From a virus: a stretch of DNA of 64,000 bases. The stretch lies in the IMG/VR virus record IMGVR_UViG_3300009788_000096, positions 1-64,000 of that record, one strand, 5' to 3'. Positions 20,087-61,516 of this stretch are shown here, one piece after another; the stretch's first letter is position 1; the number at the start of each line of letters is the position of its first letter. The notes under the pieces were generated by a model that saw only the letters and a program-made list of their open reading frames with translations, was not told the origin of the DNA and ran no database searches. The position numbers were made by a program, and so were the translations under genes.

Positions 20087-20103
20087 CTAATAAGGAGGAT
20101 GTT

Positions 20104-22888: not shown

Positions 22889-23084
22889 GTTAAAGCGGGA
22901 TCTGGTGATCCCGTCTGGAACAGTATTTAAAAAGTCCCCGAACAGGTTGATGCTTGGAGCTGGCTGTCACGAATGCCAATTATTTACTCCTGACAAAATG
23001 TGCATTACTACTTTAGTTTGCAAATTACAAAATAGCGAAATATTCGAAGAGGAATTCGAAGAAGAGGATATCGAAGAAATCTAA
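22878..23084 (+). CDS. hypothetical protein
   Basis: Operon packing. Confidence 0.55.
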   Translation: MQYRLKRDLVIPSGTVFKKSPNRLMLGAGCHECQLFTPDKMCITTLVCKLQNSEIFEEEFEEEDIEEI

Positions 23085-28063: not shown

Positions 28064-28216
28064 ATGTCTTATGAAACTGTAAGAAATTGGATGAAAACGA
28101 ACCCTGCGGTTCCGCCCCAAATGCGTAAGTGGGCAGAAGGGATCGACGGTTCTGTTACGTGGATCACAACGACCACGACCACCAGTACTTCTACGACGAC
28201 CACTACGAGTTCTTAA
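28064..28216 (+). CDS. 50-aa protein ending in poly-Thr (possible capsid decoration)
   Basis: AGGAGG SD; MSYETVRNW...WITTTTTTSTSTTTTTSS. Confidence 0.75.
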   Translation: MSYETVRNWMKTNPAVPPQMRKWAEGIDGSVTWITTTTTTSTSTTTTTSS

Positions 28217-30082: not shown

Positions 30083-30643
30083 ATGCCAACACCTGCAAAT
30101 GTCTCAAATCTTGCGATCGGTAAAGGCATCCTCTACATTGGAGAATGGAGCGGAATGACTCCGCCGACCGATCCTGCTGGTTATAGCGATATGGGTAATG
30201 TCACGTCTATCGAGGTAGAACCGATGATTGAAAGGCTGCCGCATTACTCTTCGCGTACCGGCTTTAGAACGAAAGACAAAAACCCGATTATCCAAACCGA
30301 ATATGCTATTCGCTGGGATTGCGATGAGATAGCTGCCGTGAATTTAAAGCTGTTTCTTCTGGGCACCAAAGTTGCCAATGTCATTTCTGCTCTGCAAGCA
30401 ACGGACAAAGAGTATGCCCTCAAGTTTATTTCCGATAATCCCATCGGGCCCAATCAGACGTGGCGTTGTTGGAAGATGACTGTAACTCCCAATGGCCCAT
30501 TGCAGCTGATCGGCGAAGAGTATATGGCAATGAGTTTCGCTGGTGAAGGACTTGCCGATATTGCTAATCACGCAAGCAGTCCTTACATGACCATAACGTA
30601 CGTAACCACAACCACCACAACTACCACAACGACCACTTCTTAA
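30083..30643 (+). CDS. major tail tube protein with C-terminal poly-Thr
   Basis: IGKGILY..MGNV..HYSSR..NPIGP..; ends VTTTTTTTTTTTS. Confidence 0.8.
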   Translation: MPTPANVSNLAIGKGILYIGEWSGMTPPTDPAGYSDMGNVTSIEVEPMIERLPHYSSRTGFRTKDKNPIIQTEYAIRWDCDEIAAVNLKLFLLGTKVANVISALQATDKEYALKFISDNPIGPNQTWRCWKMTVTPNGPLQLIGEEYMAMSFAGEGLADIANHASSPYMTITYVTTTTTTTTTTTS

Positions 30644-33913: not shown

Positions 33914-35188
33914 ATGCCATACCAAACAGGCGTAGTAACACAATTTTTAGGAGCAAACGGATTACTTCAGAAACTTTTAGATTTTATATCAGGAACGGAA
34001 GTAACTGGAGAAACTTTATCTAGCAGCGGAGTCTCATGGTCTGGGAGTTTAGCGAGCTCTCCTGTTGGACTTGGAAGGCTTGTTATTACCTATGAATTTT
34101 CTTCAGTTGAATATGAGGCTACAGATGATGGTTCCGGAAATATCACTGGAACAAATATTTCTGCCGGTACTATCAACTATACCAATGGAGCTTACAGCAT
34201 TACTTTTACTGGCACACCGGACGCAGCGCCAACTGCCGATTATATCCACGGAGTTCCCGGACAGGATTGGCGTGTAGAATTAAACCGAACCACCAGAGAT
34301 GATGGTGGTGATGGATATACGGAACCATGTCCGGGAGCAAAGGAAGTAGTGCTTTCAAATACAGGTCTATCAGGAGCGGAAGCAGTTATTGTTGGAATCA
34401 GGGAATGCTTCTATGTGACGGAAGACTTTTATAACTGGGACTTAAACGGTTATCTGAATTTTAACGCAGCGGGTGAATGGGATCAAAACGCAATCACTCA
34501 TGGGATGCCTACGTATAGTTCTACATTCGAAAGTTTTTATCGCCATCCCGGGATGGCACTTCGTAATGATACAATGAACTATTGGTTCTATTCGAATCAG
34601 CAGCGTTTTATAGTTATAGTAAAGGTTGCATCTAACTATGAATCATGTTATCTCGGCTTTGGCAGGCGATTTGGTAATCCCGGCGATTATCCTTATCCAT
34701 TGTTTATCGGTGGTTGTATTAGTGGAAACAGAATATCATCTGATACTACATTGTTTCATCAATTTTTTATTCAAATAAATCGTGCAGATAATAACTGCCA
34801 AGTTTGGACTGTGACTCCGGGAACGGATTATATGACTTGGATAGGACAATCAAGCGCAAACGCGGGTCAAAGAATACTGCCTTACGGTACATGGGGAGAT
34901 CTGGGTGCGCTTAACCCAACAAAGAATGGCGAACGAATAATGACTCCCGTTTATATATGCCCATATAGTTCGTTACTCGGTTCGCTATATTATGATCTGG
35001 ATGAAGTATATCATATTGCGGGCATTGGCTTACAAAGTGAAGACTTGGTTAATTATGCTGGCAGTAGGTATCGGGTATTTCAAAATATATTCCGAACAAC
35101 TTATTTTGACTATATGGCAGTAAAGGAAGGTGCCGCAGTTTCAACAACGACAACCACGACAACCACGACAACTACGACTTCAACTTAA
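33914..35188 (+). CDS. virion tail protein with C-terminal poly-Thr
   Basis: MPYQTG..., YPYPLFIGG; ends STTTTTTTTTTTTST. Confidence 0.75.
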   Translation: MPYQTGVVTQFLGANGLLQKLLDFISGTEVTGETLSSSGVSWSGSLASSPVGLGRLVITYEFSSVEYEATDDGSGNITGTNISAGTINYTNGAYSITFTGTPDAAPTADYIHGVPGQDWRVELNRTTRDDGGDGYTEPCPGAKEVVLSNTGLSGAEAVIVGIRECFYVTEDFYNWDLNGYLNFNAAGEWDQNAITHGMPTYSSTFESFYRHPGMALRNDTMNYWFYSNQQRFIVIVKVASNYESCYLGFGRRFGNPGDYPYPLFIGGCISGNRISSDTTLFHQFFIQINRADNNCQVWTVTPGTDYMTWIGQSSANAGQRILPYGTWGDLGALNPTKNGERIMTPVYICPYSSLLGSLYYDLDEVYHIAGIGLQSEDLVNYAGSRYRVFQNIFRTTYFDYMAVKEGAAVSTTTTTTTTTTTTST

Positions 35189-41458: not shown

Positions 41459-43729
41459 ATGGCAAAGCTTTCACCGACACAATTACAGAAGTTAAAATAT
41501 GCCACGCAGGGCTGGAATGAAATAATGGAGCGAAATGCTCGACTGCTGGATGAAACACTTCTGAAAGTATCCGGAATGGTCGATGTCAATTTGACTTCAT
41601 TGTCGAATGATGATATGCTTGTATGGGATGTACCGACCCAGAAGTTTATCAACGTTCCTTGGAGTACGATAATTGCACCTACTACTACCACAACCACTTC
41701 GACATCAACGACGACTGCGACTTCAACGACGACTGCGACTTCAGCGTTGCTCCTGCTGATTTATTACAACATGGAATCATTGCTGAATACAACTACAACA
41801 ACGACAACCACTACAACGACTACTGTTACAACGACGAGTTTTACTTGTGCCATCGGATATTCTGGGAACTTGTGTGGGGTTCCTACAAATGCGTTCTGTT
41901 ATCAAAACTACGGCGGTTATACATGCAGTCAGGCATTTACGGATCATACTGATCCATGGGCAAGTGGTCCTGCTGATCAACAATATAGTGGTTACACTTT
42001 TGGGGTTCCTCAAATTGTTAATAAGATTGATATCCAAGCCCATACCTCTCCATACAATCGCCATCCGGTCGCTTTCCAATTCCGTGCTTCTAATGGTTCT
42101 GCACCAACTAATCTATCAGAAGCAGAAGGTGGTACGCAGATATTGCAAGTAAAGATGGCAGGGACGTTTGACTATCCAACCCACCATAGTGTTGGTGATC
42201 TTGGCCATTGGTCTTCTGAAGAAGTCAAAACTTGGACATTTTCAAATATCACCGCATATAAACACTATTGGATATTGATGTGGGATAAGGATGAAGCTAA
42301 TTTTAGTAGAGGTGCTGATTTTCATATTGGCGAAATGAATATGTATAGTTGTGGGGCAAGGCTAAGTACTACCACAACAACGACTTCTACAACAACGACA
42401 ACTATGACTGTTTGTACGACAACAACTGTTACGGTACCATTTTATAAGTGTGCTTTAGATCCAGTCGATCTGGGTGCTAATATTACTTTGCAGCATTATA
42501 ACATGAGGGCAATCCATTCTGCTGCCAGTGCTTGGAATTCCGCTATAAGTAAATATTATACAAGAAAGAATGCTTTCGGACAGAATAAGTTTTACTTTGA
42601 AATTGAATGTCGACCTTCTACTGATGATCAATGGATTCTCGGTCTTGCCAATGAAAGTTTCAATGTTGATGGATATCCTGGCGATAGTACAGCCGGTTGG
42701 GGTTATCGTGGAAATGGGAACAAGTATTACAATGGGAGTGCTGGAGGTTATGGAGATGCATTTGGCGATGGCGACGTTATCGGTGTAGCCTTTAACTTGC
42801 TTACAAATAAAGTTTGGTTCTCCAAGAATGGCGCATGGCAAGCCGGTGGTGATCCTGCTGCGGGTACGGGTGAAGCATATAGTAATTTGACTGGATCACA
42901 ATTCTATGCGGCAATCGGACTTTATCAAGAAACTCATGGTCAATTAAGATTGTCTTCAGATGATTGGGACTCTGTGGCACCTTCAGGATTTGTTGAATTT
43001 GCTTGTGATGAGATTACAACAACGACTTCAACAACGACAACCTCAACGACAACCACAACAAGTTCAGTAAGCACAACAACTGTTACGGTGCCATTATATA
43101 AGTGTGCTTTTGACCCGGCTAATAAAGGTGCTTTTATTACTTTGGAATATTACAATAAACGGGCTCGGTCAACCGGTTCTAATTGGGACTCTGCGGCAAG
43201 TAAATATTATACAAGAAAGAGTGCATTCGGACAAAATAAATTTTACTTTGAATCATATCTACATTCTGGAAATAATATGATTCATGGTATTGGAAATGAA
43301 AACCTTGTCACTACAAATTATCCGGGCAGTGATGCAAATGGTTGGGGTTATAATACTGCCAATGGTAGAAAGTATCACAGTGGCGCTTGGACACTTATTG
43401 GTAGTGCAATGAGTCAAGGCGAAACTGTTGGTATCGCAATTGACTTAACTGATTTGGATATAGGCCAAGGCAAGATTTGGTTTGCCGATCAAGGTTCATG
43501 GATAGAAGGCGATCCTGCAGCTGGCACCGGAGCAAGTTATAGTAATTTGACTGGAGCGCAGATTTATGCGCTGATCGCTGCCTATAGTAATGGTGTAACG
43601 GCCGAACTTAGATTATCTTCTGACGATTGGGTCCAGTCCGCTCCGTCGGGATTTGTTGAATTTGCTTGTGTTGAGATTACCACCACAACGACAACAACGA
43701 CAACCACTACAACGACAACTACAACATAG
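41459..43729 (+). CDS. modular tail fibre/adhesin: anchor, discoidin-like domain and two SPRY (B30.2) domains, joined by poly-Thr linkers
   Basis: FYFE..G..YPG....WGY..NG.KY..GDVIGVA..VWFSKNG x2; five Thr tracts. Confidence 0.8.
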   Translation: MAKLSPTQLQKLKYATQGWNEIMERNARLLDETLLKVSGMVDVNLTSLSNDDMLVWDVPTQKFINVPWSTIIAPTTTTTTSTSTTTATSTTTATSALLLLIYYNMESLLNTTTTTTTTTTTTVTTTSFTCAIGYSGNLCGVPTNAFCYQNYGGYTCSQAFTDHTDPWASGPADQQYSGYTFGVPQIVNKIDIQAHTSPYNRHPVAFQFRASNGSAPTNLSEAEGGTQILQVKMAGTFDYPTHHSVGDLGHWSSEEVKTWTFSNITAYKHYWILMWDKDEANFSRGADFHIGEMNMYSCGARLSTTTTTTSTTTTTMTVCTTTTVTVPFYKCALDPVDLGANITLQHYNMRAIHSAASAWNSAISKYYTRKNAFGQNKFYFEIECRPSTDDQWILGLANESFNVDGYPGDSTAGWGYRGNGNKYYNGSAGGYGDAFGDGDVIGVAFNLLTNKVWFSKNGAWQAGGDPAAGTGEAYSNLTGSQFYAAIGLYQETHGQLRLSSDDWDSVAPSGFVEFACDEITTTTSTTTTSTTTTTSSVSTTTVTVPLYKCAFDPANKGAFITLEYYNKRARSTGSNWDSAASKYYTRKSAFGQNKFYFESYLHSGNNMIHGIGNENLVTTNYPGSDANGWGYNTANGRKYHSGAWTLIGSAMSQGETVGIAIDLTDLDIGQGKIWFADQGSWIEGDPAAGTGASYSNLTGAQIYALIAAYSNGVTAELRLSSDDWVQSAPSGFVEFACVEITTTTTTTTTTTTTTTT

Positions 43730-43737
43730 AGTATATA

Positions 43738-45012
43738 ATGAAAAAGTTTCCTGACATTCAAGCGAATTATCCGGGTCGAGCATTTGGCGTCGTTCAAACG
43801 ACTACCAGACCTCTGCTCGGTACTTATAGCTTTGACTTCGACGGCACGGACTTTATAAGAACTGTAGTCCATCCCGGAACCGATATCAATATTGCGATTT
43901 CATTATGGATTCGTTTTGATACGGTTCCAACGGATGCAGTCAATAGACCTGTTGCTATAATGAGTAATAGTGATGGAACTAATTCTGGTCTTGGATTAGT
44001 CAAAGTCACCGGAGCCGCAAGAGTTCATATGGTTCGTTCTGCAAATGGAGCTGCCGGAGCTTATGAAGTAGACGATCAAGCAACTCCCGGTTCTGGCTTT
44101 GCGGTTTCTCCTAATACTTGGTATCACATGGTTGTGCAGAAGACAACTACGAATTTTGAACTTTGGGTCAATGCTGTTAAGGTTCTTGATCGAGCCGGCT
44201 CCTTTGGCAATGCCGATGCGACCGGATTTGATGGATTACTTCTTGGCTCTAAAACAGATAATTCAAATGGAATCGACGGGAAGATTGATCAAGTCAAAGT
44301 ATTTGATCTTGGTACCAGCGGCGGTTTAGCTCAAAGTCAAATTCGTGAGTTATATTTTGAAGGTGCAACAACGACAACTACTTCAACGACAACCACGACA
44401 ACCACGACAACTACTTCAACAACGATTGATCTTTGTCCTGGTGGATATTCCTCTGAATTATGTACTGATGGGGTAAACAGGGCATTTTGTCGTCAGACCT
44501 ATGGTGGTTATCAATGTTCCTGGGCTTTTGATGGTAACTATAATAACCCGTGGGTGGGTGGTACATTAGATCAGCAATACGTTGGTTACAGTTTCGTCGT
44601 TCCACAAATTGTCAATAAATTTTCTATTCTTGCATATAATGGTTCGACATTTCCGAGGACGCCGGATGCTTTCCAACTCCGTGCTTCTAATACTGCTGCC
44701 CCAACTAATTTAACAGAAGCTGAGGGCGGTACATTAATCCATCAAGTAAAGATGCCGGGAACGTTTGACTACCCAACCCATCATACTGTTGGTAACCTCG
44801 GGCATTGGAGTCAAGGCGAACTTAAATCTTGGGAATTCGATAATGGCATTGCATATAAACATTATTGGATGCTGTTCTGGGACAAAGATGAAAACGACTT
44901 TGGTCGGAGTGGGGATTATAATTTTGGTGACCTCAGTATGTATAGCTGCGGCCCACGTTTAACAACGACAACCACGACAACCACGACTTCAACGACAACT
45001 ACTTCATCATAA
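43738..45012 (+). CDS. LamG-like plus discoidin-like domain protein with poly-Thr
   Basis: FDGTD..ISLWI..NTWYHMVV..LWVN..GKIDQVKVF; second domain paralogous to that of 41459-43729. Confidence 0.8.
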   Translation: MKKFPDIQANYPGRAFGVVQTTTRPLLGTYSFDFDGTDFIRTVVHPGTDINIAISLWIRFDTVPTDAVNRPVAIMSNSDGTNSGLGLVKVTGAARVHMVRSANGAAGAYEVDDQATPGSGFAVSPNTWYHMVVQKTTTNFELWVNAVKVLDRAGSFGNADATGFDGLLLGSKTDNSNGIDGKIDQVKVFDLGTSGGLAQSQIRELYFEGATTTTTSTTTTTTTTTTSTTIDLCPGGYSSELCTDGVNRAFCRQTYGGYQCSWAFDGNYNNPWVGGTLDQQYVGYSFVVPQIVNKFSILAYNGSTFPRTPDAFQLRASNTAAPTNLTEAEGGTLIHQVKMPGTFDYPTHHTVGNLGHWSQGELKSWEFDNGIAYKHYWMLFWDKDENDFGRSGDYNFGDLSMYSCGPRLTTTTTTTTTSTTTTSS

Positions 45013-45020
45013 GGTGACTA

Positions 45021-45230
45021 ATGACTATACTATCACCCAGCGGTTTGGAAACGGACGATTATAGCCAAGCAAATTGGTGGGCAATCTATAACAGAAATGT
45101 GGAACTGTTGAATGCTGTTTTGATAAAGTTGCAGGGATTGGGAGACGTAAAGGTAGACAAGTTAAAAGATGACAGTTTTCTTTTCTGGGATGATGCTAAT
45201 TCGAAATGGAAAGTGGGGATTTATCCATAA
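45021..45230 (+). CDS. small protein paralogous to the fibre N-terminal anchor
   Basis: LSP.GL...Y...W....RN..LL...L.K..G..DV....L.DD..L.WD. Confidence 0.7.
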   Translation: MTILSPSGLETDDYSQANWWAIYNRNVELLNAVLIKLQGLGDVKVDKLKDDSFLFWDDANSKWKVGIYP

Positions 45231-45511
45231 TGGCAACCTATTATACATTGACTAACACTGGTTTGCGTTATTCTGATATTGGTTATTCTGCATGGAATGT
45301 CAATGTCAATAACTATAACTGGAGCGCGCTCAATAATACTCTCTTGAAGTATTCGGCTTTGTTAGACGTTGATCCCACTGGCTTAGTTCAAGGCGACGTT
45401 TTAATATATAACTCATCTTCTGAAAAATGGGAAAGGAAAGCTTTAAACCCTGGCTATCACGTGATCAGTACAACGACAACTACGACTTCTACTACTACGA
45501 CTTCGACATAA
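45230..45511 (+). CDS. small anchor-domain paralog with C-terminal poly-Thr
   Basis: LNNTLLKYSALLDVD...GDVLIYN...STTTTTTSTTTTST. Confidence 0.7.
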   Translation: MATYYTLTNTGLRYSDIGYSAWNVNVNNYNWSALNNTLLKYSALLDVDPTGLVQGDVLIYNSSSEKWERKALNPGYHVISTTTTTTSTTTTST

Positions 45512-48018: not shown

Positions 48019-50769
48019 ATGACAATCCAAGAATTAGATATGGAAAATGGCGATTATGATTTGACTTCATTAATTACCGTGTTAACTCATATTCCCGATG
48101 CCGATAATGCTATGGAATGTCGAGCTCTCGTATTTTTTGGTGATGGCACTAAGAATCTTGATGGCACAGGTGGAAACTTCAATGTTGTCATAACTATTGG
48201 GAGTCAAACATTACAGCCCAGTCCGAAGGTTTATACCTTTGGAACGGAAGTACGATCTGCTCTCCGCACTGATCCATTTACTGTCCCCGCAAACGAACAA
48301 GTTATAGTCAAAGTTCTATCTCCAAATGGTGCTGATACAGATGTTGATGTCACAGCATATCTTCATAGTGACAATGTTGCAAACGACGTTTGGGATGAAT
48401 TACTTACAGGCGGAACTCATAATATTGCGACAAGCGCAGGACGCCGGCTCCGGACTTTACAAGATTTCGGTCTTTATGAAGGCGGAGCGGTATGGGTTGA
48501 TACGGTGAATGGTGTCGCCGGAACAGTCAATTTTGAAAACGGGGTAGTAAACAATCCTGTGGATAGCATTGCAGATGCGAAGACAATAGCAGACAGCATC
48601 GGGCTCAAAACAATCCATTTCCTTGCGGGATCGTCTGTAACTCTTGCAGAAGCATTTGACAGCTTTGTTTTTGAAGGAATGGCATATACGGTTGATTTAA
48701 ACGGACAGTCTGTTAATGGGACATGGTTTCAAAGAGCGACTATTGTTGGAAATGACGATGGTTCAAATACGATTCCGACACGTTATCTTCGTTGCATAAT
48801 GGGAAACAATACTCTCGGGTTATCATACCTTGGAGATTGTGCGTTTGAAGGGGATTTGGTGTTGGCGCAAGAGGGCACCTATATTACAGATCGTTGTTTG
48901 TCAGCAGTTGCCGGAACAGAAACTCCGTCCATTGATTTTCAAAACGAGAACGAAAATAAATATTTGAACATGCGCCATTATTCTGGAGGGATTGAAATTA
49001 AAAACTTTGGTCATGGGACAGCAGATCACCATATGTCACTTGAGGGTGATGGTCAGCTTGTCTTTAATTCGAATTGTTCAAATGCCAATGCCGGTGATGA
49101 ACTCGCTATTCGTGGAAATTTTACTATCACTGATAATGTAGGTGGTGGATGGGCTGGCACATTATCTGATGATGCCAGATTTGACTCTGTGGAATTAGTG
49201 GATAACGTTTGGGATGAATTACTTACGGGTGGAGCGCATAATATTCCGACTTCTGCGGGAAGAAGATTGCGCGAAATTGCAGGCACTGTTATTGCTTCTG
49301 ATATTGCGCAAGGTCCGGGCACTGGAAACAATCAAATTCAATTGGCTGCCGCCGCTTCCGCAGTTGACGGCGCTTATGATCCAGCGATGGTTGTAATAAT
49401 GTTAGGGACAGGAGCAGGACAAAGCCGATTAATTTATGAGTATGACGGCGCAACCAAAATTGCAACTGTAGATCGAAATTGGAAAGTAAATCCAAGTACC
49501 GATAGTGAATATGTTCTCTTCGGCCATCCAGGAAGAGAACACGTTAACGAAGGACTTGCTCAAGCCGGATCAACGAGCAGCACGATTAAGTTAAATTCAC
49601 TGGCAAGTGATCAAGATAATATTTACAATGGGCAGATGGTTTTTATCCGGTCAGGTACTGGAGAAGATCAGGTTGGGCTTGTGAAGTCATACGTTGGAGG
49701 TACTAAAGTTGCAACGATGTGGGATAACTGGGGCGTAACACCTGACGGTACAAGCGGTTACGTAATGATGCCGATGGATATGCGACCAGAAACCATAGCA
49801 AGAGGAGTTTGGGATAGATTAGTTGCGAGTCATTTAACTTCTGGAAGCGCAGGTTTGGCTCTGATGCATACCACTTATGGTAGTGTAGTTCATATTGATA
49901 CGGTTGGCGGCAGTGCAGGTACAACGTATCCAAAAGGCACAGTTGAAGATCCAGTGGATAATTATGCCGATGCAAAGATAATAGCGACAACGTATGGTTT
50001 AGAAGAGTTTCACTTGCTCAGCAATTTGACTCTTGGAGCTTCTGATAATGCAGATAATTTTAAATTTTCCGCTCCGACTGGTATTAATATTATATTAACA
50101 GTAACTTCAGGTTGCAGTACAATCAATACAACTTTTGAACGATTGGTTCTAACAGGCACATTAGATGGTGGTGTTTGGATAGAACGATGTAGTATTGCGG
50201 GACTGAATGACATTCAAGGATTTGTACTTGAATGTATATTTTTGGCAAATAGTTCTCTTACTGGTCCTTCTTCTACAGTAATGTATAATTGTGGCACCGC
50301 AGTAGTAGCCCCACCGATTACATTGGGTTTAAACAGTTCACCACTAACTATGGCAGGTTGGAAAGGCGGACTAAAAATAGGAAGCAAAATTGGTTCTCAA
50401 AATATTATAATAGATTTATTGTCCGGCACTTTGGAAATTGCTTCAACTTGCACTGCTGGAAAAATAATTGTCAAAGGCATTGGGCATATAACAGCAGATA
50501 ACTCAGGTGCTAACTGCATTATAGACACCACCGATTTAATAAAGGCAAGTCATATTGACTTCATGAAAAATATAGAAGGCGGACGTTGGAGAATTAATCA
50601 TATAACTCATCAAATGTTATTCTACAAAGAAGATAATGTTACGGAAGTTGCGCGGTTTAATTTATTTGATCATGCTGGAATCCCAGCGTCTGAAAACGTA
50701 TACGAAAGAGTTCGAGTGACAACCACAACAACTACAACAACCACTACTACTACCACAACATCAAGTTAG
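48019..50769 (+). CDS. large repetitive virion protein with C-terminal poly-Thr
   Basis: VWDELLTGGxHNIxTSAGRRLR x2, duplicated VxxDTVxGxAGT..GxVxxPVD blocks; ends TTTTTTTTTTTTTTSS. Confidence 0.75.
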   Translation: MTIQELDMENGDYDLTSLITVLTHIPDADNAMECRALVFFGDGTKNLDGTGGNFNVVITIGSQTLQPSPKVYTFGTEVRSALRTDPFTVPANEQVIVKVLSPNGADTDVDVTAYLHSDNVANDVWDELLTGGTHNIATSAGRRLRTLQDFGLYEGGAVWVDTVNGVAGTVNFENGVVNNPVDSIADAKTIADSIGLKTIHFLAGSSVTLAEAFDSFVFEGMAYTVDLNGQSVNGTWFQRATIVGNDDGSNTIPTRYLRCIMGNNTLGLSYLGDCAFEGDLVLAQEGTYITDRCLSAVAGTETPSIDFQNENENKYLNMRHYSGGIEIKNFGHGTADHHMSLEGDGQLVFNSNCSNANAGDELAIRGNFTITDNVGGGWAGTLSDDARFDSVELVDNVWDELLTGGAHNIPTSAGRRLREIAGTVIASDIAQGPGTGNNQIQLAAAASAVDGAYDPAMVVIMLGTGAGQSRLIYEYDGATKIATVDRNWKVNPSTDSEYVLFGHPGREHVNEGLAQAGSTSSTIKLNSLASDQDNIYNGQMVFIRSGTGEDQVGLVKSYVGGTKVATMWDNWGVTPDGTSGYVMMPMDMRPETIARGVWDRLVASHLTSGSAGLALMHTTYGSVVHIDTVGGSAGTTYPKGTVEDPVDNYADAKIIATTYGLEEFHLLSNLTLGASDNADNFKFSAPTGINIILTVTSGCSTINTTFERLVLTGTLDGGVWIERCSIAGLNDIQGFVLECIFLANSSLTGPSSTVMYNCGTAVVAPPITLGLNSSPLTMAGWKGGLKIGSKIGSQNIIIDLLSGTLEIASTCTAGKIIVKGIGHITADNSGANCIIDTTDLIKASHIDFMKNIEGGRWRINHITHQMLFYKEDNVTEVARFNLFDHAGIPASENVYERVRVTTTTTTTTTTTTTTSS

Positions 50770-50774
50770 GAGAT

Positions 50775-51404
50775 ATGATGGCAGTTAAAAGACAAAGTTT
50801 AAAAGGAATTGGAAAGAAGAAGAAAGCTCGCAAAGCGGCAGCTGCACAAGGGCAAATGACGCGATGGTTGAAGCCGACTGGGAATTGGAGCATGGCATGG
50901 GATGTATCAATTACTACAGGCACAGATATTACTCCCAGCGAAAGATTAAAGGAAAAATACACTTGGTGGGATGATAAGTATAGCATCGTTGCGCAGGAAG
51001 TCGCTGCTCCTCCGGGATTCGGGATTTCCTTTAAGTTTAAACCTGTTCCCAAAACACATGACTTTTATGTTGACTTCGTTGGTCATTATACTGGTACGCA
51101 TTCCGGCCCACATTTCCCGCGTGTTGAAATTTGGGATTATAATACGACTGCATGGGTTGATACAGGTATAGAACTGGATCTCACCATGAGCGAAGATCAA
51201 AGTCTTACTTCTAACCTTATAGATAAAACCGGAGATTGGTGGGAAGCAGTAACCGATAATGTCTGGTTACAACTTGCGCATCCTAATGTTGCTGGTAATG
51301 CAGCTCATGAGATTCATGTAACCAAAATGGGCTTGAGGCAAAAAATAGTAATAACAACCACAACCACTACAACGACTACGACAACCACAACGACATCGAG
51401 TTAA
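50775..51404 (+). CDS. protein with basic N-terminus and C-terminal poly-Thr
   Basis: AGGAG SD; ends ITTTTTTTTTTTTTTSS. Confidence 0.7.
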   Translation: MMAVKRQSLKGIGKKKKARKAAAAQGQMTRWLKPTGNWSMAWDVSITTGTDITPSERLKEKYTWWDDKYSIVAQEVAAPPGFGISFKFKPVPKTHDFYVDFVGHYTGTHSGPHFPRVEIWDYNTTAWVDTGIELDLTMSEDQSLTSNLIDKTGDWWEAVTDNVWLQLAHPNVAGNAAHEIHVTKMGLRQKIVITTTTTTTTTTTTTTSS

Positions 51405-51413
51405 GGAGCCATT

Positions 51414-52088
51414 ATGAAAAAGAGAAAAATATTTGTCGCTGCAATGGGCGGGCATGGGACAACCTATATTCAAAAGCATATAGGCCGTTGTGCTAAACGA
51501 CCGGATGTATGTTGGGGTGAAGGGTTGAATATTAAAAAATATCCAGAAGTAATGAAGGATATGCCGGTCGTCGTGAAAGCGAATATCTGGAGGCGACGGA
51601 CAAGAGGCCACGAGTTAAATCCAGAATACACAATAGAAGAAAACTTTGTCAGGATGATTGATTGGACAAAAGAAGATTGGATCTTATTTTCCGGTTGGTG
51701 TTCGATGAAGTCAATGTTTTTAACGGATAATGATATCGCTGCGTTCTGTCTGGTTCGCCATCCTCTTCACGCCTATGTTTCTTACTTCGGCCATCAACAC
51801 CCCAACCATTGTAGAACGCTTGGCGGCTTCAATACTGCCGCTGCGGTTCGCAAGTGGACGGGTCAATGGAATTCCATTATCTCAGATTTCTTGGCCTCGC
51901 CTGGCAAGATAGTCAGATATGAATACTTCTATAAAGACCTTCGTTATTACAAATATATTCGCGATCGGCTTTATCGTTTTGATACAACCAAAAGAAATTA
52001 CAGGGAGTTAAAGAAACCATTAGTCAAGGAACTTAAAGAGCAGGTGTCTGATAACTTCTTCCAAATATATAAGGAGTGGAAGATATGA
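51414..52088 (+). CDS. sulfotransferase-like P-loop protein
   Basis: GGHGTT (5'-PSB-like), LVRHPLHAYVSY (3'-PB-like), IVRYE. Confidence 0.65.
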   Translation: MKKRKIFVAAMGGHGTTYIQKHIGRCAKRPDVCWGEGLNIKKYPEVMKDMPVVVKANIWRRRTRGHELNPEYTIEENFVRMIDWTKEDWILFSGWCSMKSMFLTDNDIAAFCLVRHPLHAYVSYFGHQHPNHCRTLGGFNTAAAVRKWTGQWNSIISDFLASPGKIVRYEYFYKDLRYYKYIRDRLYRFDTTKRNYRELKKPLVKELKEQVSDNFFQIYKEWKI

Positions 52089-52563: not shown

Positions 52564-52698
52564 ATGGCAACTACTACCACTACAACAACAACGACCACTT
52601 CTACGACGACGACAACAATAATTCCGTCTGGCGATCCTAAATTGATTTTTATACATGATGAAGTCAAAAAAGTTTTCAAATATCAAAAGAAAGAATAA
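52564..52698 (+). CDS. 44-aa protein with N-terminal poly-Thr
   Basis: MATTTTTTTTTTSTTTTTIIPSGDPKL...; coupled to the upstream stop codon. Confidence 0.6.
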   Translation: MATTTTTTTTTTSTTTTTIIPSGDPKLIFIHDEVKKVFKYQKKE

Positions 52699-52813
52699 GT
52701 TTTTAAATTTAAAACGAAACAGTTATAAAATGAGTTATAATATATTATAGAAATGTCTTCAATAATGAAGACAAACCGCCACTCATAACCGTGACCCCAT
52801 AGGGGAATCACAA

Positions 52814-54157
52814 ATGAAAAGGAGAAGTCAAATGTTTAAACCTCAGAACGTAGCCATCCTCACCAACTTCCAAGATTTCAATCCCGGCTATTCCCTGTCA
52901 GGAATCGTAGCGGACCAATGTATAATGCTTGATCGCTACGGCCACAAAGTTCATCTTTATACTTGTGATAGTTATAATGATGAATTCGATGATGTTGACC
53001 TGCCATGTGAAGTACACCGAAAAATTCCGTTTTGTCACCTTACCGATTACAAAGAGGAAAAGGATTTTTCCAAGGAACACGAGATGTATGGCAAAACGTT
53101 GAAGAATGTTTTGGTGGAAGAATTCAAGACGAAGAAAATCGAGATTGCTTTTACTCATGATTGGATTTTCACCGGATGGAATCTTCCGTTTTCTTATGGT
53201 ATCCGCCTTGCCAACCCACATCTGGGTGGAGTCAATTGGATGCATTGGGTTCATAGCGTTCCTTCTGATCTTGAATATCCGCAAGGTAGGGATTGGTGGG
53301 ATATTAGGAGATATGGCCCGAATCATAAAATTATTTTCCCCAATGCCATCGAAAGAACCCGGGTGGCCGAACAGTTTAAAGGACAAATTGATGATGTCCG
53401 TATAATCCCGCATATCAAGGATCTGCGAACATGGTATGACTTTGATGAGGAAACATGGGAATTCATAGATGACTTCCCCGGCGTAATGCAAGCGGACATT
53501 GTGCAAATCTATCCGGCTTCCACTGATCGTCTTCGTGCGAAACAGATCGACATGGTTGCAAATCTTTTTGCTCGCTTTAAAGAAAAAGGTTTTACTGTTT
53601 GTCTTGTCGTTGCAAACCAATGGGCAACCGAAAAAGAGCAGGAAAAAGATATCCAAAACTTTTTGGATCTTGCACCTAAACTGGGATTGAAGCCAAATGA
53701 AGAATTGATCTTTACTTCGGCATGGAAAGATGGCAAGTATAATACCGGTCTACCGAAGAAGATATTGAGGGAGCTGCAATTATGTTCCAATATTTTCGTC
53801 TTCCCAACGGTAGAGGAATCATTTGGTCTGGTTGGACCGGAGGCTGCGCTTGGTGGTAACTTCATGGTTCTAAACAAAAGTCTTTATATGATGTTCGAGA
53901 TATTTGGGAACTCTGGACTTTACTGTGATTTCGGTTCCTACCATAACATCTTCGATCCTAAAAATATTGGAATTACTATGGATCAATATCTGGCAGGGGT
54001 TTGTAATCTGATTCTGGGGAGGTTTTCACAGAATGAAGTATTTCAAACCCGGACTTGGTGTCGAAGAGTTTATAATATGGATAACCTATATAATCAAGTC
54101 TACCAACCGTTGATGGCAGAGTCCCGTCTGTGGGGCTTCCCCACCAAAGCATTATAA
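52814..54157 (+). CDS. GT-B (GT4-like) glycosyltransferase
   Basis: NIFVFPTVEESFGLVGPEA (ExxGxxxxEA). Confidence 0.85.
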   Translation: MKRRSQMFKPQNVAILTNFQDFNPGYSLSGIVADQCIMLDRYGHKVHLYTCDSYNDEFDDVDLPCEVHRKIPFCHLTDYKEEKDFSKEHEMYGKTLKNVLVEEFKTKKIEIAFTHDWIFTGWNLPFSYGIRLANPHLGGVNWMHWVHSVPSDLEYPQGRDWWDIRRYGPNHKIIFPNAIERTRVAEQFKGQIDDVRIIPHIKDLRTWYDFDEETWEFIDDFPGVMQADIVQIYPASTDRLRAKQIDMVANLFARFKEKGFTVCLVVANQWATEKEQEKDIQNFLDLAPKLGLKPNEELIFTSAWKDGKYNTGLPKKILRELQLCSNIFVFPTVEESFGLVGPEAALGGNFMVLNKSLYMMFEIFGNSGLYCDFGSYHNIFDPKNIGITMDQYLAGVCNLILGRFSQNEVFQTRTWCRRVYNMDNLYNQVYQPLMAESRLWGFPTKAL

Positions 54158-54167: not shown

Positions 54168-55388
54168 ATGGAGATAACCATTAAGTCATTTAACGGCATT
54201 GGTGATTTACTTTTTGTAACTCCAACGCTGAAAGTAATTAAGGAGGCCTATCCTGATTGTCATATAACAGTCAATACTAATTATCCGGACTTGTTGGAGG
54301 ACAATCCAAACGTTGACGTGATTGGATCTGAGAACGTAGGAACGTTTCTGGGGTACGATGATCCAATTCACCAGAAATGGCCGACAGCGCATCATATATT
54401 AAAGGACTGGCATATAATCTGTGAAGAATATGGCCTGCATACTGATAAGCCAGCGCTGCAACCAGAACTTTATCTTAATTTTATGACGGCACTGGATGTG
54501 CTTGAAAAACATCGATCCCCAATAGGAGTGCAAATTATACACAAGGGGCATTGGCATGCAAAAAAGATTTGGCCTAAATTTGATTATCTTTCGCGGCTCC
54601 CTAAGTTTGTGCCAATTCCAAAGGTGCCTTCGATTAAGGATTTGATTTACTTCATTGCTTGTTGCAAGGCGGTAGTATGCGCTGAAGGTGGAATCTCACA
54701 TATCGCAAAGGCAGTAGGAACACCAGCGATAGTCATTTACGGAGGCTTTGCCAAACCGGAATGGAATGGTTATGAAGATCAAATAAATGTTTGCAATGAA
54801 AAATGGTGTTCCTATTGTTACAACCCGAAACCATGCGAAAATGAAATTGAAAGAATTTGCATGAAAGAAATTTCAATCGAACACGTTTGCCGGCTGGCTG
54901 AAGGTTTGGAAAAGATTCCAGAGCTTGAACAACACAATGCAATGAAGTTTATAAAAGAAGATGCTTTATGTTGGTCAAGAACCTGCTCTTCCCATAGACC
55001 CGACATGTTAGATATCGGTGCTGGCAATAATCCCTTGCGTGGCGCGAGAGGGATAGATACAGGTAAAGATGAAGATGCTTATAACATCTACACAGCGGAT
55101 CGTTCGCAAGATTTTATCTTCTCTTCCCATTGCATCGAGCATTTGGATTATCCTTCTAAAGCTTTGAGAGAATGGAGCAGAGTGCTTCGTACCGGCGGTC
55201 TGCTTTATCTTTATTTCCCGTCGCCGGATTATATACCTTGGAGACAGAAGTCAATGCCGAAATGGCATAAGCATGATTTTCGCATTGAAAGTATTTTGGC
55301 AATGCTCCCCGACGATTTATACCCAATTGAAATCGCCCATACAGATTGGTTCTTCGGTCAAAAAATTATAGCGAGAAAGGAAAAGTAA
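54168..55388 (+). CDS. GT9-like glycosyltransferase fused to a SAM methyltransferase
   Basis: GIGDLLFVTP..EGGISHIAKAVGTP; LDIGAG..FSSHCIEH..RVLRTGG. Confidence 0.85.
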   Translation: MEITIKSFNGIGDLLFVTPTLKVIKEAYPDCHITVNTNYPDLLEDNPNVDVIGSENVGTFLGYDDPIHQKWPTAHHILKDWHIICEEYGLHTDKPALQPELYLNFMTALDVLEKHRSPIGVQIIHKGHWHAKKIWPKFDYLSRLPKFVPIPKVPSIKDLIYFIACCKAVVCAEGGISHIAKAVGTPAIVIYGGFAKPEWNGYEDQINVCNEKWCSYCYNPKPCENEIERICMKEISIEHVCRLAEGLEKIPELEQHNAMKFIKEDALCWSRTCSSHRPDMLDIGAGNNPLRGARGIDTGKDEDAYNIYTADRSQDFIFSSHCIEHLDYPSKALREWSRVLRTGGLLYLYFPSPDYIPWRQKSMPKWHKHDFRIESILAMLPDDLYPIEIAHTDWFFGQKIIARKEK

Positions 55389-55389: not shown

Positions 55390-56172
55390 ATGGCTAAAAA
55401 AATGATCAAGAAGCAAAAACTTAAATGCACGGCGGAGGGTTACAAAGAAGCATTGAACCGGGTGAGGGCTGCGGAAGATCCTGTTGATGCGCTTTGCAAA
55501 TTTTATAATGAAACAGTCGGGATGAAAAAAGGCCGGACGGTTTTCGATACGCAATTTGTTCCGTTCATCGAGAAGTATGGATGTGACAGGGAAATAAGTT
55601 TGGAGATTGGCTATGGCCCCGGTTCTCTTGTGGCCGAAGCAGGGAAGCATTTCCGTGAGACATGGGGGATAGATGCTCATGAGGCACGGAATCTGGTTGG
55701 CCATTTGTTGGAAGCAAATGAATGCTATAACTATAAACTCCTTATCAGTCCTGATGGAAGAAGTATTCCCACGAAGAAAAATAACATTGACTTCATTTAT
55801 TCATGGACTGTTTTTATGCACTTCGGGAAAATCGGTATCGCCAGTGATTATCTTCGTGATGCCTATGCGGTTTTGAAACCGGGAGGTCTGGCGCTCATTT
55901 ACTTCTCCAGAATGTATCGAAGTCGAAAGCATGAAACAAAAGAGGAATGGCTGGCTGCAATTGAGCACGAAGAGGAAATGGAACGGTATCGAGAGATTAG
56001 TGGCAGTACAATCCAAAAGATTAATCTTCAAATCTCCATGCAGCAAATGGTTGATATGTGCGAATGTGTCGGTTTTGAAGTCTTGGAACGAACGGCATCG
56101 ACCAGAAGAATCGACGGAATACTTTGCCACCACGGTCAACATGGGGTAGTACTTCGAAAAGAAAAGGAGTAA
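55390..56172 (+). CDS. class I SAM-dependent methyltransferase
   Basis: LEIGYGPG, IDFIYSWTVFMH, VLKPGG. Confidence 0.85.
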   Translation: MAKKMIKKQKLKCTAEGYKEALNRVRAAEDPVDALCKFYNETVGMKKGRTVFDTQFVPFIEKYGCDREISLEIGYGPGSLVAEAGKHFRETWGIDAHEARNLVGHLLEANECYNYKLLISPDGRSIPTKKNNIDFIYSWTVFMHFGKIGIASDYLRDAYAVLKPGGLALIYFSRMYRSRKHETKEEWLAAIEHEEEMERYREISGSTIQKINLQISMQQMVDMCECVGFEVLERTASTRRIDGILCHHGQHGVVLRKEKE

Positions 56173-56175: not shown

Positions 56176-56898
56176 ATGAGAGAAAAAGAAGTTGCAGTTG
56201 TGGCAATGCCAAGGACAGGCTCCACATATCTTTTTAGATGCTTGGCTGGTCTCAAGCATGCAGGTGGAAGTCCGAAAGGCGCCAACCTTGCAAAGCTTCC
56301 AATAATGAAGTGCCACAGTTTAGCTCCACCCGAAACTTTCGGTGATCCGTGGTCAAGCCAAATAAGTGAGCATTGTCTTAAAGGAAGAAAAGTCATTTGG
56401 CTTTTCGGTGATCCAATAGCTTCTGTCGTTTCCACAATGAAGAAAAGGTTTGACCATGTTCATGCGAAGAATTGTGGCTGCTTTAAACCGCTGGGGATGG
56501 TGGATCTGATAGATAGAGATGACTTTAACTATGAGTGGATGTTTGACTCATGGACATCTATCCGACATGACTTTCCCGTTTTATGTGTAAGGTATGAAAC
56601 CTTATGGAAAAACCGTTTTGTGATCGAATGGTTTCTGGGAAGAAAAGTCAAATGGAATGAGTGGAGTCCTCGGTCTAACAGGTGGACCACAGAAGAACTT
56701 CCAAACTTTCTTTCGAAAGCCTTAAATAAAACCTATTCAAGTTTGGTTGAAAAAGTTCAAATGCATCCGGATGTAACTTTAAATGGTGGAGATACATTGA
56801 GAATATCCGGGGATTTGGTAAGGATAGAAAAAGGCGTTGGATTTGGCAAAAACTATTTTTATGACTTAGTAAAAAAAGGAGAAACGGAAAATGGCTGA
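56176..56898 (+). CDS. sulfotransferase-like protein
   Basis: MPRTGSTYL, KCH, DPIASVVS, VRYETL. Confidence 0.75.
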   Translation: MREKEVAVVAMPRTGSTYLFRCLAGLKHAGGSPKGANLAKLPIMKCHSLAPPETFGDPWSSQISEHCLKGRKVIWLFGDPIASVVSTMKKRFDHVHAKNCGCFKPLGMVDLIDRDDFNYEWMFDSWTSIRHDFPVLCVRYETLWKNRFVIEWFLGRKVKWNEWSPRSNRWTTEELPNFLSKALNKTYSSLVEKVQMHPDVTLNGGDTLRISGDLVRIEKGVGFGKNYFYDLVKKGETENG

Positions 56899-57943
56899 GC
56901 TGTCAATTATTGTACCGTATGTGAACGAGTATCCACAAATCCTTTTTACACTTCAAAGTATTGCGCAAGACCTACGAGGTCGCGTTGACTTTGAAGTCAT
57001 TGCTGTAAACAACTATTGCGATGAAGTCATTGCTCAAGATCGCGATAGCACAAGACGAATCATTCGAAGATTAAAAGCATTTTACAATATCGAGGCTTCA
57101 GATGAAGAAATTGTTGAAACATTGGTCGGTGAAGAAATTGGACTCATTGGGCCAGAAGATAAAGGTGGCAAGGCAGTAGAAGCATGTGCTAAAGGGAACG
57201 ACTGGCTTACGGCGATTTCATACACGGACAAGTTAAGTCATTGGAATGCGAAGCGTTTCGGCATTGAAAATAGCAGTGGTGATTATTTTCAATTCATTGA
57301 TTCCCATTGCATCGTCGGCCGGAATTTGCTGTATGATATGTTTGACTTTTATAAAGATAACGCTTGGAGCATGGATGGCACGCTCCATCCGCCCTTGACA
57401 TATCTCATTTTGGAATGGCGAAGATTAATATATGGATTAAGATTTGTCCATACCGAAAAACAAGCGCAACTTGACTATAAGTTTTCGAGTTACCAACATC
57501 CCGAGAGTGGCTTGCCATACGAGGTTCCGTGTATGTCGACTTGTGGTATGCTAATGACTCGGGAGCTATACGAAGAAACTGGTGGCTGGCCTAAAGAACT
57601 GGGAATTTATAGTGGAGGCGAGCACTTCATGAATTTCACCCTTGCTGTTCTTGGAAAGAAGAAGTATATCTTTCCAACTAAATTTGCGTTGTATCATCAT
57701 GCCGAAAAAAGAGGATATGCTTTTAACTCCGGTGATACTCTTCGCAATCGCTTAATAGCAGCATATCTATACGGTGGCCTTGATTGGTTTTATGAAAATA
57801 TAAAGAAGTGTAAAGGTCGGCCAAATGTGATTAAGAAGTTTCAAGCGGAGATTCCATTATTGTGCAAAGATCAGCGGCAATGGATTAAAGATCGACAAGA
57901 GATGACTATATTCGAATGGCTGGAAAAGTGGGGAAAGATATGA
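56891..57943 (+). CDS. GT-A glycosyltransferase resembling polypeptide GalNAc-transferases (GT2/GT27-like)
   Basis: SIIVPYVNE, FIDSHC (DxH), PCMSTCGMLMTRELYEETGGW..IYSGGE, YHH. Confidence 0.8.
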   Translation: MAELSIIVPYVNEYPQILFTLQSIAQDLRGRVDFEVIAVNNYCDEVIAQDRDSTRRIIRRLKAFYNIEASDEEIVETLVGEEIGLIGPEDKGGKAVEACAKGNDWLTAISYTDKLSHWNAKRFGIENSSGDYFQFIDSHCIVGRNLLYDMFDFYKDNAWSMDGTLHPPLTYLILEWRRLIYGLRFVHTEKQAQLDYKFSSYQHPESGLPYEVPCMSTCGMLMTRELYEETGGWPKELGIYSGGEHFMNFTLAVLGKKKYIFPTKFALYHHAEKRGYAFNSGDTLRNRLIAAYLYGGLDWFYENIKKCKGRPNVIKKFQAEIPLLCKDQRQWIKDRQEMTIFEWLEKWGKI

Positions 57944-58366: not shown

Positions 58367-58549
58367 TTAAGCCTCCGCTGCTCTTTGAAATACTTCTTCA
58401 AGCTTGTCATACTGTTTTTCTGTTAAGTAATTATTATCTTCATAAAACGTTTCCACATTGGCCACGAAGTTAGTCTCCCAATCGTCCAATGGATCATGTT
58501 CCATGAACTGGAAGATATGTTCGATTCGGCTATGTTTTCTTATCTTCAT
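58367..58549 (-). CDS. small conserved phage protein
   Basis: LDDWETNFV...LTEKQ..KLEE. Confidence 0.7.
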   Translation of the reverse strand: MKIRKHSRIEHIFQFMEHDPLDDWETNFVANVETFYEDNNYLTEKQYDKLEEVFQRAAEA

Positions 58550-58905
58550 TTGCTTCTCCTTTTAATGACTCGCTTTTTCTTTCTCCTTTTAATAATTCGT
58601 TTTCCTTGTTGAAATTTAAACGCAACTGACAGTTCGTTAATTCTGGATTGTATCCCTCGTATTCTTGATTTTAAACTTCTGATATATTCATAATACTGGT
58701 CTTCGTTTTTGATATAGAAGTATCCGCTGCCACGACTTCCTATTGGATGCCTCCTTGAGATAAGTTCACGGATAATCTTCCGGACTCCCGGCTGAGACAA
58801 GTCCCATTTGTCTTTAGTATTTAATATACGTCCGATTTGTTGGGCTGTTATTGGATTAGTCCAGCTTGCATTTTTAATTAATTCAAGAATTTCGCGAGCG
58901 TTCAT
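58546..58905 (-). CDS. winged-helix DNA-binding protein with IKRR tail
   Basis: PITAQQIG..VRKIIREL..PIGS..GYF. Confidence 0.75.
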   Translation of the reverse strand: MNAREILELIKNASWTNPITAQQIGRILNTKDKWDLSQPGVRKIIRELISRRHPIGSRGSGYFYIKNEDQYYEYIRSLKSRIRGIQSRINELSVAFKFQQGKRIIKRRKKKRVIKRRSK

Positions 58906-59126
58906 CTTCTTTTTCTCCTCTTGATAATCCGTTTTTGCTTCACGATTTTTAACCTGTTTAACTTCTTGAAGTGGCGTGGACATAAGGCCAGCCTTAATCC
59001 GCGTGGATCTCCAGCCTCACGATTGCCGATAACAACTCCAATAATATCATCACGCCATTTACAGTCGGGGTCTAAGTCAAAGCACTCCCAACAGACACGA
59101 CTTCCCTGTAATCTAACAAGTCTCAT
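58902..59126 (-). CDS. small Zn-finger protein with IKRR tail
   Basis: CWEC...LCPRH. Confidence 0.65.
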   Translation of the reverse strand: MRLVRLQGSRVCWECFDLDPDCKWRDDIIGVVIGNREAGDPRGLRLALCPRHFKKLNRLKIVKQKRIIKRRKRR

Positions 59127-61199: not shown

Positions 61200-61516
61200 T
61201 AGACTTCACCTCCTTTCTTTTTAGAGATTGCTTCGCACAATGATAATGCAGTTTGAATAATATGCATCCACCTATTGTCGAAGTCATGTGCGTCCCAGTT
61301 TTCAGTATAAGTTAAACCGCGAAGGAAATTTCGGACATGCATTCCTTCACGAAAATGGACAGAATGAGGAATACCGTCTTCGGTCCAAATGGATTGAACT
61401 AAACTACCATATTCGTCAACGCACATTTGGAAGAAAGCAATTCCGTCGTAGCCAAGCCAAACTAATATTCTGGCAAACATATCTTTTTCAATCTCGCTGA
61501 TTTCATTCGGTTTCAT
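61199..61516 (-). CDS. conserved phage protein (HSVHFREGMHVRNFLR motif)
   Basis: AGGAGG SD. Confidence 0.7.
   Translation of the reverse strand: MKPNEISEIEKDMFARILVWLGYDGIAFFQMCVDEYGSLVQSIWTEDGIPHSVHFREGMHVRNFLRGLTYTENWDAHDFDNRWMHIIQTALSLCEAISKKKGGEV

Follow-up and report, generated by a model that had tools for sequence, protein, structure and literature searches.

To our knowledge, the glycosylation of virions by phage-encoded enzymes has been shown experimentally only in mycobacteriophages, where it affects antibody recognition. In Gram-positive bacteria, the glycosyltransferases (GTs) GtfA and SdgB, both of family GT4, initiate the O-glycosylation of serine-rich repeats: within the GtfA/GtfB system of serine-rich repeat protein (SRRP) adhesins, and the SdgA/SdgB system of staphylococcal SD repeats, soluble cytoplasmic enzymes load Ser/Thr tracts with N-acetylhexosamine (HexNAc), and others extend the product. 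The subject of this work is a comparable locus in a phage known from IMG/VR record IMGVR_UViG_3300009788_000096, the first 64,000 nucleotides (nt) of which were analysed and are referred to as the window. One gene therein encodes an enzyme resembling the polypeptide GalNAc-transferases (ppGalNAc-Ts) of family GT27, and several virion proteins encoded upstream carry tracts of almost pure threonine. We conclude, with moderate confidence, that this GT27-like enzyme belongs to a virion-glycosylation cassette and acts there as the initiating peptide O-glycosyltransferase.

56891..57943, + strand: GT27-like GT-A glycosyltransferase, candidate initiating peptide O-glycosyltransferase; 350 amino acids (aa), a single ATG-to-stop open reading frame (ORF)

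For the mycobacteriophages Che8, Corndog and Myrna, glycosylated virion proteins are reported, with Che8 gp110 and Corndog gp38 being essential for capsid glycosylation (Freeman et al. 2023, Cell Host Microbe 31:1216, as cited in PMC12363180); the study is also cited in PMC12582341. Within Che8, gp108–110 are a GT2 joined to a methyltransferase, a GT2 and a GT25-like enzyme, respectively. The window phage has an analogous gene content, in that soluble phage GTs are combined with a GT–methyltransferase fusion, the genes lie towards an end of the genome or operon, and sugar-synthesis genes are absent; tail tube and head proteins of the phage itself are the presumed substrates. It differs in its presumed initiating enzyme and in the possession of a dedicated homopolymeric tag, which is also found on fibres and small proteins. 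Che8 gp110 is unrelated to the profile of the GT27-like family (hhalign probability 0.06%), and the capsid and tail tube proteins of Che8 end in ...NKTGS and ...YSDGS, respectively, with no poly-Thr. A tblastn search of 50,697 deposited phage genomes, Che8 amongst them, with the GT27-like enzyme returned nothing at E ≤ 1e-5, neither from Che8 nor from any other phage, and there is therefore no cultured carrier to name. The system is thus of the same kind as mycobacteriophage self-decoration, but its presumed initiating enzyme is a different one, and it has the homopolymeric tag in addition; the full texts searched contain no report of such a system, be it as poly-threonine, GT27 or mucin-type O-glycosylation in a phage. 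With regard to the Gram-positive systems, the initiator there is a GT-B enzyme (GT4) that targets cell-wall adhesins, whereas the phage enzyme is of the GT-A type and would target virion proteins.

In GT27 enzymes, the catalytic domain comprises a subdomain A with the GT1 motif and a subdomain B with the Gal/GalNAc-T motif, and roles are described for the residues of DXH, a conserved His and WGGE (PMC6994419). An earlier note on this DNA had set four strings of the phage ORF, SIIVPYVNE..ILFTLQSI, FIDSHC, PCMSTCGMLMTRELYEETGGW..LGIYSGGE and YHH..KR, beside motifs of these enzymes. All are found in the ORF, and profile alignments with ppGalNAc-Ts pair them as the note had it: SIIVPYVNE with SIIIPFHNE, FIDSHC with FLDSHC, P.MS..G....R......GGW...LGIY.GGE with P.MA.G....R......GGY...LEIWGGE, and HH.EKRGY with GHIFRKRSPY of PGANT9. 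Domain libraries offer little beyond this. The sole Pfam match is to PF00535 (residues 119–158, 34.8 bits against a cut-off of 23.3), a label also precomputed for nearly all of 120 listed homologs, and neither PHROGs nor NCBIfam holds a family for the enzyme. When the single protein was compared with 177,635 PDB sequences using phmmer, one match was obtained, GalNAc-T10 (2d7i, E 0.06). A family profile from an alignment of 40 homologs, seeded by the window protein, yields six PDB matches at E ≤ 6.5e-4, all of which are ppGalNAc-Ts (T10, Toxoplasma T3, T7, PGANT9A/B and T4); 2d7i is again the best (E 9.4e-6), and TarP and other bacterial GT2s rank after this group. GT27 chains align over profile positions 3–250 of 308, i.e. 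both catalytic halves, whereas the bacterial GT2s of the PDB align only in the N-terminal, nucleotide-binding half.

Residues D137, H139, G242, G243, E244, H269, H270, R274 and Y276 are invariant across the 40 aligned sequences. D137-S-H139 aligns with the DSH of GalNAc-T10 (FLDSHC), and H269 with the metal-binding His (the GH of PGANT9), such that D137-x-H139 and H269 pair with the Mn2+ triad of GT27. Similarly, K273-R274 aligns with the basic pair that follows the metal-binding His in GT27, G242-G243-E244 with the GGE of the Gal/GalNAc-T motif, and Y196, which is also invariant, with the Trp of the FDW stretch in GalNAc-T10, so that the place of the Trp that contacts the peptide is also taken by an aromatic residue.

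Structural prediction extends this likeness to the whole chain. The AlphaFold2 model generated from the family alignment has a mean predicted local distance difference test score (pLDDT) of 93.7 and a predicted template modelling score of 0.91. When compared with the PDB using Foldseek, ppGalNAc-Ts occupy each row shown to rank 49 (E 4e-16 to 1e-12; template modelling score, TM, by query 0.59–0.69). VIA-align, which is independent of Foldseek, was run against 48,161 representative chains and places GalNAc-T1 at Z 26.4 (282 residues aligned, root mean square deviation 2.9), with model residues 2–350 superposing on GalNAc-T1 residues 116–426, and Toxoplasma TgGalNAc-T3 at Z 25.0. Behind these two come WrtF (19.6), heparosan synthase (19.3), chondroitin polymerase (19.1), SpsA (18.5) and TarS/TarP (approximately 17). 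Peptide-directed enzymes are thus 6–7 Z units nearer to the model than is any GT-A enzyme of the PDB that acts on sugars, and a structure nearer to polysaccharide GT2s, the outcome that the earlier note had named as telling against its proposal, is not what is seen among solved structures (Z 26.4 versus 19.6).

When set against the GT27 enzymes of mouse (GalNAc-T1, 8v9q), human (T2, 2ffu), Toxoplasma (GalNAc-T3, 8uhv) and T10 (2d7i), the superposition takes in the full catalytic domain together with its C-terminal Gal/GalNAc-T subdomain and trailing helices, and the presumed phage substrates are dense Thr/Ser tracts, as in mucins. The architecture around this domain is nevertheless different, as GT27 enzymes are type II membrane proteins of the Golgi lumen with a ricin-type lectin domain, whereas the phage enzyme is predicted to be cytoplasmic and has no anchor, stem or lectin. 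There is no room for an anchor or stem because beta-strand 1 starts at residue 4; nor is there any for a lectin domain (no PF00652 match), because the chain stops at residue 350, inside the trailing helices of the catalytic domain. The phage subgroup also has a helical insert after strand 2 (residues ~44–100). With an identity to GT27 of 13–17%, no match to PF02709 at either E ≤ 0.01 or E ≤ 1, and a family motif Y-[GS]-G-G-E-[NH] in which an invariant Tyr replaces the mobile catalytic Trp of WGGE and which is one residue longer, the enzyme is not a strict member of that family; the last two points also weigh against the initiating role proposed for it. It can safely be stated that the nearest solved family is GT27, inside a wider GT-A/7C group with uncharacterised bacterial members. 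For the eukaryotic parallel drawn in the earlier note, this means that the part concerning solved structures stands, GT27 being the nearest amongst them, but that the likeness is not exclusive, as bacterial GT2/7C clusters in the ESM Atlas are about as similar.

The putative substrates are found in the same window. Nine + strand ORFs of the structural module contain tracts of 12–19 residues of almost pure Thr, eight of which stand at the extreme C-terminus of the protein; on the opposite strand, the only Thr run is one of five residues. All four ACN codons are mixed in each tract, which speaks for selection on the amino acid and against DNA slippage as the source of the tags. The tagged ORFs are as follows.

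28064..28216, + strand: 50-aa protein directly after the major capsid gene, with AGGAGG 7 nt upstream of the ATG; C-terminal tag TTTTTTSTSTTTTTSS, nt 28166–28213
30083..30643, + strand: major tail (tube) protein, 186 aa, phrog_807 (E 1.4e-25); C-terminal T11-S, nt 30605–30640
33914..35188, + strand: structural (distal-tail-like) protein, 424 aa, phrog_687 (E 3e-32); C-terminal S-T12-S-T, nt 35141–35185
41459..43729, + strand: SPRY fibre protein, 756 aa, PF00622 (E 3.7e-22); four internal Thr linkers and C-terminal T16, nt 43679–43726
43738..45012, + strand: LamG-like fibre protein, 424 aa, PF13385 (E 1.6e-11); a single internal Thr linker as well as a C-terminal tag, nt 44962–45009
45206..45511, + strand: 101-aa ORF with no family match; C-terminal tag STTTTTTSTTTTST, nt 45467–45508
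48019..50769, + strand: fibre-like protein, 916 aa; C-terminal T14-SS, nt 50719–50766
50775..51404, + strand: 209-aa protein; C-terminal T14-SS, nt 51354–51401
52564..52716, + strand: predicted 50-aa micro-ORF just upstream of the GT genes; N-terminal tag MA-T10-S-T5, nt 52570–52617

In the SPRY and LamG-like fibre proteins, the Thr tracts double as inter-domain linkers. The 50-aa ORF at 28064–28216 is in frame with the capsid gene, and the idea that it merely extends the capsid protein, by read-through or by a frameshift, was rejected on account of two intervening stop codons and its own AGGAGG. The match of the major tail protein to phrog_807, a family annotated as 'major tail protein with Ig-like domain', covers just the N-terminal third of the profile, and the Thr tag of the protein stands where relatives carry the Ig-like decoration domain, as is also the case for the homolog in another carrier genome (G038). 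The one tRNA gene of the window is a tRNA-Gly(UCC) (20015–20087, + strand); there is no tRNA-Thr, although the late genes make heavy use of Thr codons.

The association of enzyme and tags extends well beyond this phage. A tract of seven ACN codons, (ACN)7, is present in 40 of the 49 IMG/VR records carrying the family, always on a single strand within a given record, and in 17 of the 18 carrier records with a completeness of 90% or more. A reversed pattern, used as a control, is nearly absent. The overall count is an underestimate, because (ACN)7 overlooks (Ser-Thr)n tags, as in one record (G040) that scored 0 and yet has four tagged ORFs. As IMG/VR relatives identified by their capsid are mostly short fragments, and the long ones carry the GT, there was no GT-less sister group for comparison, and a random sample was used instead: an arbitrary 14-mer drew 51 viral records, of which 46 (1.67 Mb in total) were examined. 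None contains (ACN)7 (Fisher p 2e-18 versus carriers), and the same is true if only the 17 random records of at least 30 kb are considered (p 1e-9). In the reverse test, 4 of 32 records chosen only for a tract of ~12 ACN codons carry a clear family member (E ≤ 5e-38), which has a chance probability of 2e-6 even at 100 times the rate at which the family occurs in a motif scan of viral contigs.

Whole genomes were put together from their fetched stretches for ten carriers, all with a completeness of at least 93%, and every one of them displays [ST] tracts on virion ORFs or on large ones. From four carrier genomes other than that of the window phage, nine tagged proteins were compared with PHROGs, and seven match head, tail or virion structural families (major head, head decoration, two major tail, head, scaffold-like head and virion structural protein). 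The ten genomes range from 38 to 59% in G+C content, and most pairs have fewer than ten gene families in common, the closest pair having 33; one of them (G041) has only the GT27-like gene in common with nearly all of the others. Their capsid genes also belong to different PHROG families, for example phrog_1328 in the window phage and phrog_29 in genome G014. With so few common families and such different capsids, an artefact of shared ancestry is unlikely, and the pairing of enzyme and tag looks functional. The link that the earlier note drew between this enzyme and the poly-Thr tags is hence supported: the two occur together in phages that are largely unrelated, and the random control points the same way.

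As to the distribution of the family, a search of 5.8 billion clustered proteins gives at least 689 relatives (clusters at 90% identity; E ≤ 1e-3), and many of them sit on contigs of 60–95 kb. IMG/VR yielded 77 loci, and the motif scan confirmed 79 stretches in 2.9 million contigs. Amongst cellular genomes, one each for 185,579 prokaryote species, there are seven members, all on contigs of 3.8–83 kb in metagenome-assembled genomes (MAGs); two of these contigs are phage-sized, and at least four have poly-Thr tracts. One such MAG (G125, 3.7 Mb) has a count of 35 (ACN)7 tracts, of which all those listed lie on the GT-carrying contig, and in 300 other genomes of its phylum the enzyme finds generic N-terminal GT2 matches at best (E ≥ 1e-7, versus 3e-159 for the phage-like contig). 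Within what was searched, the family is therefore restricted to viruses. The two phage-sized contigs (L366, DIKO01000052.1, 71.6 kb; and L369, JASFHE010000001.1, 83.3 kb) were binned into Desulfobacteraceae MAGs and carry the GT together with poly-Thr tracts; they are prophages or mis-binned phages, and provide a possible, but weak, hint as to the host of these relatives. In a 52-kb phage (G028:C1:45424-47474, locus L287), two GT27-like copies with 35 and 41% identity to the window enzyme stand in tandem, recalling the isoform specialisation of animal GALNTs.

The record to which the window belongs is 95,402 bp long and rated 100% complete. From ~16 kb to 58.3 kb, the + strand of the window is a siphovirus-type late operon that contains the large terminase, portal, an SU10-type major capsid protein, the major tail protein, tape measure, tail proteins and fibres; both the coding strand and the GC skew switch at ~58.3 kb. 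The GT27-like gene is the second-to-last of this structural operon, shortly before the strand switch, and it shares its first 8 nt with the ORF upstream. Such a position at the end of the structural operon counts, by its timing, in favour of a role in virion modification. The genes beside it form a cluster with the following members.

51414..52088, + strand: 224-aa protein that opens the cluster; without a match in Pfam, PHROGs or NCBIfam
52814..54157, + strand: GT4-like (GT-B) glycosyltransferase 'A', 447 aa; weak PF13439 match (E 1.7e-3), phrog_2170 glycosyltransferase
54168..55388, + strand: GT9 (heptosyltransferase-like) and S-adenosylmethionine (SAM) methyltransferase fusion, 406 aa; PF01075 (E 2.9e-11, residues 155–219) and PF08241 (E 6.5e-10, residues 300–348), with weak TIGR02195 and TIGR02193 matches
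55390..56172, + strand: SAM-dependent methyltransferase, 260 aa; PF13489, PF08241 and PF13649 (E 5e-8 to 3e-7)
56176..56898, + strand: sulfotransferase-like protein, weakly assigned, 240 aa; PF00685 (E 2.8e-4, 20.8 bits, cut-off 22) and PF13469 (E 5.6e-3), no NCBIfam match

The proteins at 51414–52088 and 56176–56898 flank the GT genes, and the glycan might be sulfated if they are real sulfotransferases; no gene for the synthesis of 3'-phosphoadenosine 5'-phosphosulfate was identified among the window ORFs scanned. Elsewhere in the window, the SU10-type major capsid protein (27023–27985, + strand) has its nearest deposited relatives in actinobacteriophages (of Mycobacterium, Propionibacterium, Bifidobacterium and Eggerthella) at ≤39% identity, none of which has a GT27-like gene. 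A 752-aa protein of the head module (23084–25342, + strand) harbours an ADP-ribosyltransferase domain (PF00644, E 5e-7; ART-PolyVal, PF18760) and also weakly matches PF07737, the family of the anthrax lethal-factor N/C-terminal domain (E 6e-5, below cut-off); it resembles a phage 'polyvalent' protein, and is possibly packaged and ejected. Three early ORFs on the - strand (58546–58983, 58902–59126 and 61513–62151) possess near-identical, very basic tails (..KKKRVIKRRSK, ..KRIIKRRKRR and ..KKKRIIKRRKI), which look like a second type of C-terminal tag, on the strand opposite to that of the Thr tags.

The observations that weigh against the GT27-like enzyme as initiator on the Thr tags are best considered together with the explanations that they would favour. 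Five gene families recur in at least seven of the ten carrier genomes, i.e. the GT27-like (ten, by selection), GT4-like GT-B (eight), a second GT1/GT4 (seven), a methyltransferase (seven) and a 250-aa family (seven), and most lie near the GT27-like gene. The window cassette has the GT4-like gene but not the last three, in place of which it has the GT9–methyltransferase fusion, the methyltransferase and one or two sulfotransferase-like proteins. It is conceivable, although we consider it unlikely, that the GT27-like enzyme extends a glycan for which the first sugar is added by the GT4-like enzyme or by a host enzyme. Initiators of the GtfA/SdgB type do act on Ser-rich repeats, so that the GT4-like enzyme may be the initiator in the window phage; moreover, the bacterial GT2/7C clusters, possibly non-peptide in their action, are as similar to the GT27-like enzyme as GT27 is, and its fold alone is therefore no proof of a peptide acceptor. 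The fold of the GT4-like enzyme is uninformative as to the acceptor: its AlphaFold2 model (pLDDT 85) retrieves a flat list of generic GT4 enzymes at Z 15–17, led by small-molecule and lipid transferases, with the protein-directed GtfA and SdgB present at Z 12–13 and showing no special likeness. The GT27-like model, by comparison, lies nearest to peptide-directed enzymes by the margin given above. Furthermore, a hidden Markov model search of all six frames finds no GT4-like family member in G014 or G041, both of which have tags and a GT27-like gene, and in the set of 32 records selected for poly-Thr, members of the GT4-like family occur only beside the GT27-like gene. In G014, the GT27-like gene is the only PF00535/PF00534 match, and hence the only recognisable GT, and three virion proteins, including the major head protein, are tagged. 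This genome is, however, 93% complete, and its member of the 250-aa family could be an unrecognised transferase. Contact with the peptide by the GT27-like rather than the GT4-like enzyme is accordingly favoured, as is the initiating role that the earlier note had assigned to it, and the GT4-like enzyme probably extends the glycan. The 250-aa family itself has no Pfam match, lies near the GT27-like gene (e.g. L308:17714-18472, in G044; also G008, G014, G017, G022, G028 and G038), is the only other shared cassette gene in G014, and is absent from the window phage.

Moreover, 28 of the 32 poly-Thr-selected viral records lack the GT27-like family, meaning that such tags occur also with other enzymes or with none. 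This would suit poly-Thr tracts that are plain, unglycosylated linkers and tails, with the cassette serving a host envelope glycan (for superinfection exclusion) or the phage DNA. We regard this as decidedly improbable, given that enzyme and tags co-occur across largely unrelated phages whilst the random controls are tag-free, that the enzyme has no membrane segment, that none of the ORFs of the GT cluster is a gene for a flippase, a polymerase or a lipid carrier, that the gene stands at the end of the structural operon, and that its nearest solved relatives are peptide-directed. More doubtful still is that the likeness to GT27 is convergent, or the heritage of an old GT-A/7C scaffold, and that the enzyme is an ordinary, host-derived GT2 of bacterial type. 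Speaking for this are the restriction of its Pfam matches to PF00535 and its low identity to GT27. Subdomains of the PF02709 type are, besides, common in bacteria, with matches in 9 of 14 control prokaryote genomes. In the ESM Atlas, bacterial clusters of 293–311 aa (Bacillota and Actinomycetota; PF00535, PF02709 and PF10111) reach a TM of 0.74–0.76 by query and 0.85–0.89 by target, and chordate GALNT clusters, at 0.72–0.74, are no nearer than these bacterial GT2/Glyco_transf_7C clusters. The latter are similar in size to the phage enzyme and also lectin-less, but they are cellular rather than viral and, unlike the phage family, PF02709-positive. An ordinary bacterial origin is, moreover, at odds with the distribution of the family, given that the seven members from the 185,579 species genomes all lie on contigs of MAGs, and that 300 genomes from the phylum of one of these MAGs yield only distant N-terminal matches; and the DxH...H triad and C-terminal half are common to GT27 but not to the bacterial GT2s of the PDB.

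With the GT27-like enzyme as initiator, what we infer from the above is glycosylation of the tags, with Thr as the acceptor and with no other enzyme of the cassette taking the step on the peptide. Late in infection, the soluble, cytoplasmic GT-A enzyme would bind a host nucleotide sugar via Mn2+ on D137, H139 and H269; by analogy, the donor is likely to be UDP-hexose or UDP-HexNAc, and the reaction would be a retaining one if the enzyme is indeed GT27-like in this respect. It would then transfer the first sugar to Thr (and Ser) hydroxyls of the disordered tags and linkers on new virion subunits, i.e. the small head-associated protein, tail tube, distal tail protein and fibres, before or during assembly. 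Extension of the glycan might be performed by the GT4-like GT-B and GT9-type enzymes, and capping by the methyltransferases and perhaps the sulfotransferase-like proteins, such that the particle would come to carry a mucin-like brush of glycans. Candidate roles for this include shielding, adhesion to matrices, and replacement of the Ig-like decoration domains of tail tube proteins.

With a recognisable enzyme and a simple, portable tag, the findings point to a system that differs from that of the mycobacteriophages and would be much more widespread. A broader proposition, which we put forward only tentatively, is that tailed phages of uncultured bacteria run a mucin-type O-glycosylation, with a lectin-less ppGalNAc-T relative of common origin with GT27, poly-Thr as a portable signal, and a methylated and possibly sulfated brush. 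If true, the origin of GT27, usually regarded as a eukaryotic family, becomes testable, and, should the common origin hold, the step that initiates mucin-type glycosylation either predates eukaryotes or was exchanged with them. A small, soluble, lectin-free enzyme with a Thr tag of 12–16 residues would also be a tool for site-directed O-glycosylation in bacteria. For the phages themselves, it would mean that particles in sediments and waters carry mucin-like coats, with consequences for their adsorption, their stability, and their sticking to matrices and hosts.

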